From: Escherichia coli
GTDB taxonomy: Bacteria > Pseudomonadota > Gammaproteobacteria > Enterobacterales > Enterobacteriaceae
Assembly (NCBI RefSeq): GCF_048403405.1
Contig: NZ_CP183129.1
DNA length: 64,000 nucleotides
Reading direction: 5' to 3' (one strand)
Shown in pieces: positions 32,782-55,337 of this stretch. A program made the translations under genes and the position numbers. Position 1 is the stretch's first letter, and every line of letters starts with the position of its first letter. The notes below the pieces were generated by a model, which saw only the letters and a program-made list of their open reading frames with translations, had not been told where the DNA came from and did no database searches.

Positions 32782-32929
32782 AACTTTGCCTCAGGCATTA
32801 GAAATAGCGCGTTATTGTACACGGATTAATCGCACTACAAAACAGGATCACAAACATCCTCCGCAAACAAGTATTGCAGAGTCCCTTTGTGATCGCTTTC
32901 ACGGAGCATAAAAAGGGTTATCCAAAGGT

Positions 32930-33025
32930 CATTGCACCAATATGGTGCTTAATGTTTCCATTGAAGCACTATATTGGTGCAACATTCACATCGTGGTGCA
33001 GCCCTTTTGCACGATGGTGCGCATG
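32930..33025. promoter_or_regulatory. NtrC (NRI) enhancer binding sites upstream of glnA
   Basis: Repeated TGCACCA-N-TGGTGCA-like dyads (tgcaccaatatggtgct, gcactatattggtgca, others). Confidence 0.7.
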
Positions 33026-37618: not shown

Positions 37619-38992
37619 TTAAATCACCCGTGAGAACTGCTGCATCCGCGCTTTCTGGCGCAGATAGGTATCAAAGCACATGCAAATGTTGCGGATCAGC
37701 AAGCGACCTTTCGCCGTCACCTGAATCCCCTTCTCATCCACATCCACCAGCCCATCTTTTGCTAACGGGGCGAGCAGCTTGAGATCTTCGGCAAAGTAAT
37801 CAGCGAAGTGCAAATCCCACTGTTGCTCAATGGGAGCGTAATCCAGACGGAAGTTGCAGATGAGCGACTTAATCACATCGCGGCGAATACAGTCATCACG
37901 CGTTAGCGCAATACCACGCCACAGCGCATTGCCTTGTTCATCCACTTGCTGATAGTACTGCTTCAACTCTTTCTGGTTCTGCGCGTAGCAGTCGCCAATC
38001 ATGCTGATGGCGGAAACGCCCATCCCCAGCAGATCGGTATCGCCCTGAGTGGTGTAGCCCTGGAAGTTACGATGCAGCACGCCTTCACGCTGGGCCACCG
38101 CCAGTTCGTCATCAGGACGGGCAAAGTGATCCATACCGATAAACTGATAGCCCGATTGCGTCAGGAAGGCGATGGTTTCCTGCAGGATATCGAGTTTTTG
38201 CTGCGGACTCGGCAAGTCAGCATCTTTGATTTTGCGCTGAGCAGCAAAAATGGTCGGCAGATGCGCATAGTTAAAGACGCTCAGACGATCGGGGTTCAGC
38301 TCCGCCACGCGTTTCAGGGTAAAAGCGAAACTCTCCGGCGTTTGTTTCGGCAGGCCGTAAATCAGGTCGATGTTGGTGGAGGTAAAACCAATCTCACGCG
38401 CATGGTTAAGCAGTGCAAAGATGAACTCTTCATCCTGCTCGCGGTTAACCAGACGTTGCACTTCTTTGTTGAAGTCCTGCACGCCCATGCTCAGGCGATT
38501 AAAGCCCTCGGCGCGTAAATGATCGAGTACATCCAGTTCGATTTCGCGCGGATCGACTTCGATCGAAATCTCCGCATCGGCATTGAACTGGAAGTTTTCG
38601 CGCAGCAGCTTCATCAGACGGCTGATTTGCGCTTTGTTCAGATACGTCGGCGTACCACCGCCCCAGTGCAGCTGGCTCACCTTGCGCCCGGCAAAAAGCG
38701 GTGCACGATGGACGATTTCTTGCTCCAGCGCGTCCAGATACTGATCGGCCTTGTGCTGCTGGCGAGTAACAATCTTATTGCAACCGCAGAAGTAACAAAG
38801 CTTATGGCAGAACGGAATATGTACGTAGAGAGATAATGGACGCTCAGGATAGCGCGCCACGGCTTGTAAAAACGCCTGTTCGCCGAAGTCTTCTGAAAAC
38901 TCCAGCGCGGTCGGGTACGAGGTGTATCGTGGCCCGGAATAGTTATATTTCTGGATCAGGGCCAGATCCCAGTCGATTTGCTGTACAGACAT
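37619..38992 (-). CDS. hemN: Oxygen-independent coproporphyrinogen III oxidase (radical SAM)
   Basis: ORF 37619-38998; CxxxCxxC radical SAM motif (CHKLCYFCGC). Confidence 0.9.
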   Translation of the reverse strand: MSVQQIDWDLALIQKYNYSGPRYTSYPTALEFSEDFGEQAFLQAVARYPERPLSLYVHIPFCHKLCYFCGCNKIVTRQQHKADQYLDALEQEIVHRAPLFAGRKVSQLHWGGGTPTYLNKAQISRLMKLLRENFQFNADAEISIEVDPREIELDVLDHLRAEGFNRLSMGVQDFNKEVQRLVNREQDEEFIFALLNHAREIGFTSTNIDLIYGLPKQTPESFAFTLKRVAELNPDRLSVFNYAHLPTIFAAQRKIKDADLPSPQQKLDILQETIAFLTQSGYQFIGMDHFARPDDELAVAQREGVLHRNFQGYTTQGDTDLLGMGVSAISMIGDCYAQNQKELKQYYQQVDEQGNALWRGIALTRDDCIRRDVIKSLICNFRLDYAPIEQQWDLHFADYFAEDLKLLAPLAKDGLVDVDEKGIQVTAKGRLLIRNICMCFDTYLRQKARMQQFSRVI

Positions 38993-39180
38993 GCTCACTC
39001 CTTCCGATGGCGTCTCTGGCGGCTACGGCGTACCGGCGGATGCCCGTTTCGGGTCATCAGCCGGTTGCGCAGCCACTTTTGTCGCCGCGACAACCGCTGT
39101 AGTTTAACGAATAACCACACCAGATAACATATAACCGGAAGGGTTATCAGCAGAACGGGAAGGCCCACGGCGGCAATCCG

Positions 39181-39690
39181 TTAGTTGCCCCGCAGCAGAC
39201 GCATCATGTCTTCTTGCTTCTCGTCTTCTTCCTCTTCTTCGTCATCGTCATAAGAGAGGCCGAGCTTCTGCATCAACTCATCAATACGATCCAGCTTGGC
39301 ATCCACCCAGGATTGCTCTTCGGCGCTCAGGGTTTCGCCTGCTTCCAGACGTTCCAGCAGCGCATCCAGACGCTCATCCGTTTCCAGTAACTCCAACTCC
39401 GCCTGCGGTGAAAGCATAGGTTTCTCACTCTTCGGTTTGTGCTGTTTGGTGACTTTTTCAGTCACGCCCAATGGAATAGGGGTTTTACTGCCAATACGTG
39501 GATCTTTCGGTGCGTTCTGGCCTTTGCTGCCTGACGTGGTGTTACCGCCCGCTGCGCGGCTGCCCGGCGCATGACCACGACGTTTTTTCTGACGCTTACG
39601 GTCACGAGCTTCCTGATCCAGCTCCTCGCGTGTTTTTCGACGCGCTTTTGCAAGACCTTTGCTGCGTGAGTTTGAAGATGATGGTTTCAT
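39181..39690 (-). CDS. yihI: Der GTPase-activating protein YihI
   Basis: ORF 39181-39753; start at [12 protein letters not shown] giving 169 aa; highly basic N-terminus and acidic C-terminus. Confidence 0.85.
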
Positions 39691-39756
39691 AATGGTTCGT
39701 CTTTTAGCCGTTTTATTCAGTATAGATTTGCGGCGGAATCTAACAGAAAGCAAGCA

Positions 39757-40001
39757 AAGAAAAAAGGCGACAGATTACTCTGTCGCCTTTTTTCCTGACT
39801 CATAACCCTTAACGGGTCTTACAATCCTTGCAGGCCGCCAACACACCCTGTTTTTCCATTAGCCGGAACAATCCGTGTTGATTCCATTTCCGTTTAATTA
39901 CGTCTCCGGACGTTTGTCTTCCTGACAATCCTCTGTCTTCGCCTCCTGGCGCTCCTGACCCTCATCCTGAGTCATTGTTCCTGTTAGCGTCCTCGCTCTA
40001 T
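39757..40001 (-). ncRNA. csrC: CsrC small RNA (CsrA-sequestering)
   Basis: Reverse complement reads ATAGAGCGAGGACGCTAACAGGAACAATGACTCAGGATGAGGGTCAGGAGCGCCAGGAGG... with multiple GGA motifs and a terminal hairpin GGCGACAGA...TCTGTCGCC plus T-run; matches CsrC as I recall it. Confidence 0.85.
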
Positions 40002-40271
40002 GGGTGCTACTTTACGCCTTTGCTTTAAACAAACAATCAACCGCCATCAGTATTTGCACATTTTCAGAGTTTTATATAAAAGCAATTAACTGATTTATAT
40101 AGCTTATTTGACATGCATCGCAGAATTTTCTCTGCTATTTCGCATAAAGACTATCGGCAATGTCTCACAAAGCGTATGGCTTTTACTTACAACGCTCACG
40201 CCGAAAAATCCGCCTTTTATTATGGTTCAGGTATAATCGCCGCAAAGCTTTGACTGACGGAGACGACCGCT

Positions 40272-40904
40272 TTGACTAATTTGAATTATCAACAGACGCA
40301 TTTTGTGATGAGTGCGCCTGATATTCGCCACCTACCTTCCGATACCGGAATTGAAGTGGCTTTTGCAGGCCGTTCCAACGCAGGTAAATCCAGCGCGCTG
40401 AACACGCTGACTAACCAGAAAAGCCTGGCTCGTACCTCAAAAACCCCAGGGCGCACCCAGCTTATCAACCTGTTTGAAGTGGCTGACGGCAAGCGTCTGG
40501 TTGACCTGCCCGGCTATGGCTACGCGGAAGTCCCGGAAGAGATGAAGCGCAAATGGCAACGCGCGCTCGGCGAATACCTCGAAAAACGTCAGAGCCTGCA
40601 AGGTCTGGTGGTGCTAATGGATATTCGCCATCCGCTGAAAGATTTGGATCAACAGATGATTGAGTGGGCGGTAGACAGCAATATCGCCGTGCTGGTGCTG
40701 CTGACCAAAGCGGACAAACTGGCAAGCGGCGCACGTAAAGCGCAATTGAATATGGTGCGTGAAGCGGTGCTGGCGTTTAACGGTGATGTGCAGGTTGAAA
40801 CGTTCTCTTCACTGAAGAAACAAGGCGTGGACAAGCTGCGGCAGAAACTGGATACCTGGTTTAGCGAGATGCAGCCTGTAGAAGAAACGCAGGACGGCGA
40901 ATGA
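40272..40904 (+). CDS. engB: Ribosome biogenesis GTP-binding protein EngB (YihA)
   Basis: 210-aa ORF from TTG start; G1 motif GRSNAGKSS. Confidence 0.9.
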
Positions 40905-40924
40905 TTTTCTTGCCTTAATGCTTG

Positions 40925-41010
40925 TGCCGGATGTGGCGTATCCGGCCCGTAAATTCAATAGATTACGATTTTACCGTTGGCCTGATAAACATGGCGTATC
41001 AGGCATTACG
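40925..41010. repeat. REP elements
   Basis: gccggatgtggcgtatccggc / cctgataaacatggcgtatcaggc palindromic units. Confidence 0.65.
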
Positions 41011-41029
41011 GATCTTTTCTTTCGCCCAA

Positions 41030-41138
41030 TAAAAAACGCCCCAGTCATTACTGACTGGGGCGGCTAAAATATTCAGCCAAATCCGATTACGTGAAGTAAA
41101 AGGTCTGAAAGATAGAACATCTTACCTCTGTACCCTAC
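41030..41138 (-). ncRNA. spf: Spot 42 small RNA
   Basis: Reverse complement reads GTAGGGTACAGAGGTAAGATGTTCTATCTTTCAGACCTTTTACTTCACGTAATCGGATTTGGCTGAATATTTTAGCCGCCCCAGTCAGTAATGACTGGGGCGTTTTTTA, the Spot 42 sequence with its terminator. Confidence 0.9.
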
Positions 41139-41285
41139 GCGACTAACTTTACTCTTTTTTGTTCAGTTCAGAAAGCACTTTTTGTAATTTTTTTTCAGTT
41201 GTTGCATAGGAATTTCTAATAGCCATCACAAAACGTGACAGCTTATGTTGCTTACTTACGAAAAAAGGGCATGTTCAGGCGAATC

Positions 41286-44072
41286 TTAGTGCGCCTGATC
41301 CCAGTTTTCGCCACTCCCCACTTCCACCAGCAACGGCACATCCAGACGGGTACAGTTTTCCATCAGTTGATGAATCTGCTTCGCGACGGCATCGACATCA
41401 TCTTTATGAACTTCAAATACCAGTTCATCGTGTACCTGCATGATCATACGTACACGCGGTTGCTCAGCCTGTAGCCACGCATCAACGGCAATCATCGCCC
41501 GTTTGATAATGTCGGCGGCGGTTCCCTGCATTGGCGCGTTAATGGCTGCACGTTCAGCCGCTGCACGACGAGCACCATTGCTGGATTTGATATCCGGCAG
41601 ATACAGACGGCGTCCGTCCAGCGTTTCAACGTAGCCCTGCTCTTTCGCCTGAGCACGGGTGCGTTCCATATACTCCAGCACGCCAGGGTAGCGTTCGAAG
41701 TAAAGGTCCATGTACTTCTGCGCTTCTTTACGTGGAATGTTCAATTGCCGCGCCAGACCGAAAGCACTCATGCCATAAATCAGACCAAAGTTGATCGCTT
41801 TCGCGCTACGGCGTTGCTCGCTGGTGACGGTTTCCAGTGGCAAACCAAACACTTCTGCCGCCGTTGCCCGGTGGATATCTTTTCCTTCCGCGAATGCGGT
41901 CAGCAAGCCTTTGTCACGCGAGAGATGCGCCATAATGCGCAGTTCAATCTGCGAGTAGTCCGCTGAGACAATCACATAATCCTCTGGCGCAATAAACGCC
42001 TGGCGGATACGACGACCTTCTTCGTTACGCACCGGAATGTTTTGCAGGTTAGGATCGGTTGACGATAAACGTCCCGTTGCAGTTACTGCCTGGTGATAAG
42101 AGGTATGCACACGCCCGGTTTTCGGGTTGATCATCAGCGGCAGCTTGTCGGTGTAAGTCGACTTCAGCTTCGCCAGACCACGATACTCCAGAATCACTTT
42201 TGGCAACGGATAGTCCAGCGCCAGTTCTTCCAGTACCTCTTCCGACGTTGACGGCGCGCCACCCGGCGTTTTCTTCAGCGGTTTAATGCCCTGTTTTTCA
42301 AACAGAATGGTTTGTAACTGCTTGGTGGAAGAAAGGTTAAATTCCTCACCTGCAATTTCATGCGCTTTCTTTTCCAGCTCAGCCAGACGAAGGGTGAGCT
42401 CTTCAGAATGATTGTGCAGCACTTTCGGATCGATCTTCACACCGTTACGTTCAATGCGTGAAAGCACCGGCACCAGCGGCATTTCGATATTCTCGAAGAC
42501 GTTCAACGGCCCTTTGTGTTTTTGCAGATCCGGCCACATTTTCAGATGCAACTGCAAGGTGACATCTGCATCTTCGGCGGCGTAACGTCCGGCCTCTTCG
42601 AGGGCAATCTGGTTAAAGGTCAGTTGATTTTTGCCTTTACCAGCAATCTCTTCAAAAGTGATGGTTTTGTGCTTCAACCAACGTTCCGCGAGGCTGTCCA
42701 TATCGTGACGCCCGGCAACGCTATTGAGAATGTAGGACTCCAGCATGGTATCAAACGCAATCCCACGCAGCTCAATGCCGTAGTTCGCCAGAATACCGCG
42801 ATCGTATTTCAGGTTTTGCCCGACCTTCAGCGCCTTTTCATCTTCCAGCAGCGGTTTTAGCAACTCGAGTGCTCGCTCGCGAGAGATTTGATCGGGCGCA
42901 TCAAGATAATCATGAGCAACCGGAATATATGCCGCTACGCCTGGCTCGATAGCAAAAGAAAGCCCGACCAGGTTGGCAGAGATGTTATCGAGGCTGTCGG
43001 TTTCGGTATCAAATGCAAATACCGGCGCTTTTTCCAGCTTCGCAATCCACGCTTTCAGTGTTTCTTCATCAAGGATGGTGACGTAGTTGTCATAAGAAAT
43101 CACCGTTGCCGTCACTTCTGGTGCTTCGTCTGTAACACTGGTTTCCTGCGGCCTGGCTGCGGGTTTCGCCCCTTTAGCCTGTAACCATTTGCCCGCTTCG
43201 ACATCAGCAGTCCAGCGTTTGAACTCATACTTTTTGAACAGCCCCAACAACTCTTCCGCCGCCGGTTGCTGCACTTCCAGTTGTTCACAGGTCAGCTCCA
43301 GTTCAACGTCGGTTTTAATCGTCGCCAGCTGGTATGAGAGATAAGCAACCTCTTTGTTTTGCTCGAGCTTCGCTGCCATTGTTTTCGCGCCACGGAAGCT
43401 CAACCCAGCAATTTTTTCTGGTTCGGCATACAGCGTATCCAGTCCGCCAAGACCTTGCAGCAATGCCTGCGCGGTTTTTTCACCGACGCCCGGTACGCCA
43501 GGGATGTTATCAGAGGAGTCACCCATCAGCGCCAGGAAGTCGATGATCAGTTCTGGCGGCACGCCGTACTTATTCACCACCTCTTCCGGGCCGAGGATGG
43601 TATTCGTCATGGTATTGATAAGCGTAATATTTGGCGTCACCAGCTGCGCCATATCTTTATCGCCAGTGCTGATCAGCACCGGACGCCCGGCTTTTTCGGC
43701 TTCCCGCGCCAGAGTACCGATAACGTCGTCCGCTTCTACGCCAGAAACCGCCAGCAGCGGCAGTCCCATCGCTTTAACCATCGCGTGCAAGGGTTCGATT
43801 TGTGCACGCAGATCGTCCGGCATTGGCGGGCGATGTGATTTGTAATGTTCAAACAGTTCATCACGAAAGGTTTTTCCCTTGGCGTCAAAGACCACCGCTG
43901 CATGCGTCGGTTTATATTGCATGATCAGACTGCGCAGCATGTTGAGGACACCATACATCGCACCGGTCGGCTCGCCTGCGCTGTTAGTCAGCGGGGGAAA
44001 CGCGTGATATGCGCGATAAAGATAAGATGAACCATCTACAAGGATAAGTGGATTTTGGGGGATCTGAACCAT
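41286..44072 (-). CDS. polA: DNA polymerase I
   Basis: 928-aa ORF, 5'-3' exonuclease, 3'-5' exonuclease and polymerase domains in expected order. Confidence 0.95.
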
Positions 44073-50231: not shown

Positions 50232-50351
50232 ATGCCTGGCAGTTCCCTACTCTCGCATGGGGAGACCCCACACTACCATCGGCGCTACGGCGTTTCACTT
50301 CTGAGTTCGGCATGGGGTCAGGTGGGACCACCGCGCTAAGGCCGCCAGGCA
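50232..50351 (-). rRNA. rrfA: 5S ribosomal RNA
   Basis: Reverse complement matches E. coli 5S rRNA (UGCCUGGCGGCC...CUGCCAGGCAU) over 120 nt. Confidence 0.95.
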
Positions 50352-50445
50352 AATTCTGTTTTATTAACCCGCTTGTCGCCGGTTAATTTAATCTGTATCA
50401 GGCTGAAAATCTTCTCTCAATCCGCCAAAACAGCTTCGGCGTTGT

Positions 50446-53349
<2,904 letters not shown>

Positions 53350-53532
53350 TCACAACCCGAAGATGTTTCTTTCGATTCATCATCGTGTTGCGAAAATTTG
53401 AGAGACTCACGAACAACTTTCATTGTTCAGTGTTTCAATTTTCAGCTTGATCCAGATTTTTAAAGAGCAAAACTTCGCAGTGAACCTTTGCAGGTACACT
53501 CTGAAGTATTTTTTATTTAATCACTACAGAGA

Positions 53533-53608
53533 TGGTGGAGCTATGCGGGATCGAACCGCAGACCTCCTGCGTGCAAAGCAGGCGCTCTCCCAGCTGAGCT
53601 ATAGCCCC
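53533..53608 (-). tRNA. alaT: tRNA-Ala (UGC)
   Basis: Reverse complement GGGGCTATAGCTCAGCTGGGAGAGCGCCTGCTTTGCACGCAGGAGGTCTGCGGTTCGATCCCGCATAGCTCCACCA. Confidence 0.95.
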
Positions 53609-53650
53609 ATAACATGTAGTTAAAACCTCTTCAAATTTGCGGTGCAAATT

Positions 53651-53727
<77 letters not shown>

Positions 53728-53795
53728 GTAGAGGTTTTACTGCTCATTTTCATCAGACAATCTGTGTGAGCACTGCAAAGCACAGTTCTTTAAGG

Positions 53796-55337
<1,542 letters not shown>

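Follow-up and report, generated by a model that had tools for sequence, protein, structure and literature searches.

The window analysed here is a 64,000-nucleotide stretch of Escherichia coli DNA, in which the genes around the interval 39757-41138 are arranged as hemN-yihI-csrC-engB/yihA-spf-polA, the canonical order according to the RefSeq record of strain 4621 and to K-12. The order in K-12 MG1655 reads spf, spfP, yihA, csrC, yihI, hemN, and the window carries the same arrangement, reverse-complemented. The strain 4621 record, which was used to assign the neighbouring genes, agrees with the window at 100% identity across the queried 1.7 kb. We consider it practically certain that the interval holds csrC and spf, the canonical small RNA genes, which lie on the minus strand and are separated from each other by the divergently oriented, plus-strand gene engB/yihA. 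The genes of the locus are as follows:

39181..39690, minus strand: yihI, encoding the Der GTPase-activating protein, downstream of csrC (RefSeq record of strain 4621 and K-12)
39756..40001, minus strand: csrC, encoding the CsrC sRNA, 246 nt by the K-12 annotation (RF00084 match and K-12 b4457)
40272..40904, plus strand: engB/yihA, encoding a ribosome-biogenesis GTPase of 210 aa with a TTG start (ORF list, RefSeq record of strain 4621, and K-12)
41028..41138, minus strand: spf, encoding Spot 42 RNA, 111 nt by the K-12 annotation (RF00021 match)
41286..44072, minus strand: polA, encoding DNA polymerase I of 928 aa, upstream of spf (ORF list and RefSeq)

The annotated yihI gene is separated from the CsrC 3' end by a 65-nt spacer that is 100% identical to that of K-12. 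The longest yihI ORF (39181-39753, minus strand) starts from a TTG at 39753, which would bring the coding region to within 4 nt of the 3' end of CsrC (39756/39757), and the annotated start is the ATG at 39690. Of 5426 complete E. coli genomes, 5425 contain a match to the 1.7-kb segment 39600-41300, and in several human isolates, among them GN02461, 4621, MS 69-1, and TUM1226, the match is 100% identical. Two of the approximately 5490 locus matches fall on records typed as plasmids. Both csrC and spf in this window are textbook E. coli genes in their normal place, and they are already known as such.

The two RNAs were identified with covariance models: Rfam 15 was run at permissive settings over 38500-42500, and the whole window was scanned separately at the gathering thresholds; the latter scan recovered the same CsrC and Spot_42 matches. 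The Rfam CsrC model (RF00084) aligned at 39748-40001 on the minus strand with a score of 277.9 bits, compared with a gathering score of 61 (E=7e-89); the match spans model positions 1-255 of 255 and is not truncated, and lower-scoring matches from the same clan (CL00106) were suppressed. The Spot_42 model (RF00021) aligned at 41030-41148 on the minus strand with 122.8 bits (gathering score, 80; E=2e-25), and this alignment too runs the full length of the model (positions 1-115 of 115). Set against the consensus of its family, CsrC has one 1-nt deletion and Spot 42 has a 4-nt insertion in a hairpin loop; large indels are absent from both.

The preliminary description of this DNA had placed CsrC between yihI and engB and Spot 42 between engB and polA, both on the minus strand, and had proposed an Rfam covariance-model search as the check. 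Both assignments were confirmed by that search, in which the two families scored far above their thresholds at full length, and by comparison with K-12: csrC is identical to b4457 at 245 of 246 positions (99.6%, window 40001..39756), and spf is identical to b3864 at all 111 positions (100%, window 41138..41028). The bounds that it gave were also accurate, as 41138 is the exact Spot 42 5' end and 39757 lies within 1 nt of the K-12-annotated CsrC 3' end. Its remark that the sRNAs are missing from the ORF track holds in essence: neither RNA is covered by an ORF of at least 40 aa, and among ORFs of that size only 39659..39805 and 40918..41067, both on the plus strand, clip the two terminators.

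Several other Rfam families were hit in these scans. Thr_leader, mir-3926, SpF25, and BjrC68 matched the CsrC terminator, and NsiR1 matched the Spot 42 terminator, all of them far below their gathering scores; they were rejected as matches to a generic terminator hairpin. Elsewhere in the window, the minus strand carries a complete rRNA operon at 50234-55337 (16S, 53796-55337; 23S, 50446-53349; 5S, 50234-50349) with tRNAs at 53654-53727 and 53536-53608, also on the minus strand, and a StyR-44 match at 53357-53465, just upstream of the 23S gene. The ES222 sRNA model matched at 32863-32970 on the minus strand (133 bits, gathering score 62), and SECIS_3 matched at 4516-4574 on the plus strand (84.3 bits, gathering score 63). 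The SECIS_3 element would imply a selenoprotein gene at this place, probably a formate dehydrogenase.

The CsrC RNA has the composition and the predicted fold of its family. It contains 14 GGA triplets in 246 nt, compared with 7.6 ± 2.2 in composition-matched shuffled sequences, and its minimum free energy (MFE) is -87.4 kcal/mol (z -6.8), a stability reached by 0 of 200 shuffles. The GGAs at RNA positions 35, 56, 80, and 95 are located in small hairpin loops of the MFE fold, and several others are unpaired; in this predicted fold, the placement of GGAs in loops is the architecture expected of a CsrA sponge. CsrA is a global translational regulator, and CsrC titrates it under the control of UvrY (PMC4682653). 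Given the 99.6% identity to the characterised K-12 RNA, CsrC of this strain would bind and sequester CsrA and would be turned over via CsrD/RNase E. The elements that accompany csrC are listed below:

39757..39796, minus strand: strong intrinsic terminator of CsrC, with a GC-rich stem GGCGACAGA/UCUGUCGCC at 39766-39787
39858, minus strand: A144U, the sole CsrC difference from K-12 (U for A at RNA position 144, so that AAGGA becomes AUGGA)
40152..40169, minus strand: UvrY inverted repeat TGTGAGACATTGCCGATA, an exact match to the published E. coli csrC repeat (PMC4682653)
40186..40191, minus strand: TGTAAG half-site, which precedes the UvrY repeat by 16 bp, as in PMC4682653

The gene shares with K-12 csrC (b4457; RF00084, clan CL00106 together with CsrB) the neighbours yihA and yihI, the terminator, the GGA set, and the UvrY repeat with its half-site, and it differs from K-12 csrC by one substitution, A144U, at the base before a GGA. 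CsrB, the paralogous CsrA sponge, is alike in mechanism (a GGA-rich decoy activated by UvrY) and belongs to the same Rfam clan, but its locus and sequence differ from those of csrC, and the match in the window is to the CsrC model specifically. The two also differ in that csrB requires IHF whereas csrC does not (PMC4682653).

The frequency of A144U was measured with 55-nt queries centred on the polymorphism, so that every 28-mer megablast seed includes it. U is carried by 2792 and A by 2630 of the 5426 complete E. coli genomes, so that the two alleles account for 5422 of them. The idea that the substitution at 39858 marks an unusual lineage was rejected, as the species is split approximately 51/48% between the alleles. 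A144U is a balanced dimorphism found throughout the species rather than a trait special to this strain; the corresponding column of the Rfam CsrC consensus is weakly conserved.

We then turned to the region upstream of csrC. The 18-nt predicted UvrY repeat is located at -168 to -151 from the K-12 csrC 5' end, and this predicted site comprises the published repeat and half-site verbatim, at the published spacing. PMC7591399, citing Pannuri 2016, states that cAMP-CRP represses E. coli csrC by competing with UvrY. A search for TGTGA-N6-TCACA upstream of csrC yielded weak matches only (7-8 of 10 positions); one of these overlies the UvrY repeat, an overlap in keeping with the competition reported between CRP and UvrY, but the match is too weak to call. 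A simple sigma-70 consensus scan of 39600-41350 found no promoter-like sites, with 2.4 expected by chance; therefore, the transcription starts of both csrC and spf were taken from the K-12 annotation.

Spot 42 is 109 nt long in the literature (41138..41030) and 111 nt in the K-12 annotation. Its MFE is -40.6 kcal/mol (z -5.1), and 0 of 200 shuffles were as stable. The MFE fold consists of a long 5' hairpin, a single-stranded linker at nt 49-60, a second hairpin, and a terminator hairpin followed by a U-tail; the only GGA of the RNA is located in the linker. Two elements lie within the gene:

41037..41062, minus strand: strong intrinsic terminator of Spot 42, CGCCCCAGUCA/UGACUGGGGCG followed by U6, with 11 pairs of which 8 are GC
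41073..41120, minus strand: spfP, a 15-codon ORF in Spot 42 with the translation MFYLSDLLLHVIGFG

The spfP ORF is intact (MFYLSDLLLHVIGFG followed by a stop codon), and it is annotated as a CDS at matching coordinates in strain 4621 (WP_071892919.1) and in K-12 (b4837). His10, which PMC8916003 reports as critical for SpfP function, is present. This embedded ORF was not mentioned in the preliminary description, and Spot 42 is not purely non-coding. K-12 spf (b3864, RF00021) with spfP (b4837) likewise lies between polA and yihA; the three-hairpin fold and the terminator are shared, the 15-aa SpfP ORF is identical, and there is no difference within the gene.

Previous work indicated that cAMP-CRP represses spf, that Spot 42 together with Hfq base-pairs with mRNAs for the use of secondary carbon sources, and that SpfP binds CRP and blocks the activation of operons such as galETKM, thereby reinforcing the Spot 42 feed-forward loop (PMC8916003). 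The only match to the CRP consensus upstream of spf is TGTGATGGCTATTAGA (41230..41215), a weak one that agrees at 8 of 10 half-site positions and is centred at -84.5. The spf promoter region is identical to that of K-12 at 146 of 147 positions, so regulation by cAMP-CRP is presumably the same. Likewise, the 100% identity to the characterised RNA suggests that Spot 42 of this strain would pair with galK and other catabolic mRNAs in an Hfq-dependent manner (PMC8916003, PMC5694010).

When the whole locus was compared with K-12, the identity was 99.6-100% for the sRNA genes, 99.3% for their upstream regions, 97.5% for yihA, and 98.0% for yihI; by pairwise identity, the conservation of csrC and spf is no lower than that of the coding genes on either side. 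The polA-spf spacer contains a 1-nt indel, and the spf-yihA spacer contains four substitutions. The latter, at 96.7% identity, is among the most diverged segments, and it contains two perfect palindromes, GCCGGAT-n7-ATCCGGC (40926-40946) and GCCTGATA-n9-TATCAGGC (40980-41004), which resemble REP units; their REP-like 8-nt core is found approximately 29 times in the window, counting both strands, although it is so short that chance matches are expected. A 7-nt indel relative to K-12 was also seen in the yihI-hemN spacer (approximately 38999-39180). Taken together, these results establish what csrC and spf are in this window, where the two genes begin and end, the predicted folds and the motifs of their RNAs, and the gene order in which they lie.

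Two other readings of the csrC interval were weighed against that of an ordinary sRNA gene with its own terminator. The interval could be taken for a decayed protein-coding gene rather than an RNA gene, because the PGAP annotation of strain 4621 places a pseudo-CDS there (window 39809-39975, minus strand; record locus 1710-1876), described as "hypothetical protein; frameshifted; internal stop", and a "hypothetical protein" feature appears under the csrC query in 10 of 10 genomes among the matches listed. Yet PGAP itself marks this pseudo-CDS as frameshifted with an internal stop, no ORF of at least 40 aa is present on either strand of 39806-40107, the interval fits a structured-RNA model with the score given above and has the GGA periodicity typical of CsrA sponges, and the K-12 curators annotate csrC as an ncRNA. 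We give a protein-coding origin virtually no credence, and the pseudo-CDS is probably a propagated annotation artefact; the strain 4621 PGAP record, the one record inspected in full, is without an ncRNA feature for either csrC or spf. The other reading concerns the 3' end of the sRNA gene. The preliminary description had noted a terminal hairpin with T-runs on both sides, and this was found as described: read on the plus strand, A6 (39760-39765) is followed by GGCGACAGA-TTAC-TCTGTCGCC (39766-39787) and T6 (39788-39793). The hairpin is followed by a T-run on either strand and looks like a terminator in both directions; because this symmetry is strong, the plus strand also matches positions 200-244 of the CsrC model, the terminator part, with 42.9 bits. 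It could be proposed from this that the hairpin functions as a terminator in both directions and also halts antisense transcription that runs through yihI on the plus strand. But no gene upstream of it is on the plus strand; hemN and yihI are minus-strand genes, and thus no known convergent transcript needs to be stopped at this hairpin. The terminator scan gave 18 pairs, 7 of them GC, around a loop of 4, and it is to this length that the A-tract merely extends the stem. Such extension of the stem by an A-tract is common in strong one-way terminators, and we read the A-tract of CsrC as a stem extension. Functional bidirectionality is not supported and appears unlikely; it would in any case add to the reading of csrC as a canonical sRNA gene without competing with it.

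Having taken csrC and spf as two canonical sRNA genes, we considered whether their adjacency around engB reflects a physically coupled module built on direct base pairing between Spot 42 and CsrC, which might, for example, stabilise CsrC. There are reports that lend themselves to this view: overexpression of Spot 42 in Salmonella raises CsrC and not CsrB (PMC7591399), CsrA has a high affinity for Spot 42, which it binds at the pairing regions (PMC5694010), and both csrC and spf are repressed by cAMP-CRP (PMC7591399). Yet it was with a transcriptional csrC-lacZ fusion that the effect in Salmonella was observed (PMC7591399), which points to an indirect route, and the predicted duplexes between the two RNAs were no better than shuffled controls. 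The full-length Spot 42-CsrC duplex has an energy of -54.6 kcal/mol, compared with -55.7 ± 4.7 kcal/mol for dinucleotide shuffles, 166 of 300 of which were as good; for three accessible Spot 42 regions paired against CsrC, 128, 196, and 88 of 500 shuffles were as good. In addition, sRNAs act in trans, so the adjacency of csrC and spf is unnecessary. Direct pairing is disfavoured by these results, and we consider a module built on it extremely improbable. A looser proposal, built on the same three reports, would be that the two genes lie side by side as a compact "carbon-status RNA island", whose co-localisation aids co-regulation; if true, this could involve, for example, a shared chromatin domain bound by CRP and UvrY or a local hand-off between RNA and protein. 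As a variant of that proposal, A144U beside a GGA might tune CsrA occupancy between E. coli lineages. The island itself is, in our estimate, very improbable, and we retain the interpretation that csrC and spf are separate, canonical genes at their usual position.

In this strain, the molecular activities of CsrC and Spot 42 would be those described in the literature for identical or near-identical sequences. BarA-UvrY would activate csrC via the inverted repeat approximately 160 bp upstream, and CsrC would act as a protein-sponge RNA that keeps CsrA off mRNAs by means of its numerous GGA motifs, several of which sit in small hairpin loops. With glucose present, Spot 42 would silence galK and other genes that serve the use of secondary carbon sources by Hfq-dependent base pairing, and the 15-aa SpfP would bind CRP and so strengthen the same feed-forward loop. 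As a discovery, csrC and spf in this window matter little, since the characterisation of the two RNAs goes back decades and their placement is exactly that of K-12. The value of the finding lies in annotation quality: at csrC and spf, a reading of the raw sequence outdid the strain 4621 PGAP record. When this window is interpreted, 39756-40001 and 41028-41138 should be masked as RNA genes, and spfP should be counted as a real 15-codon gene.
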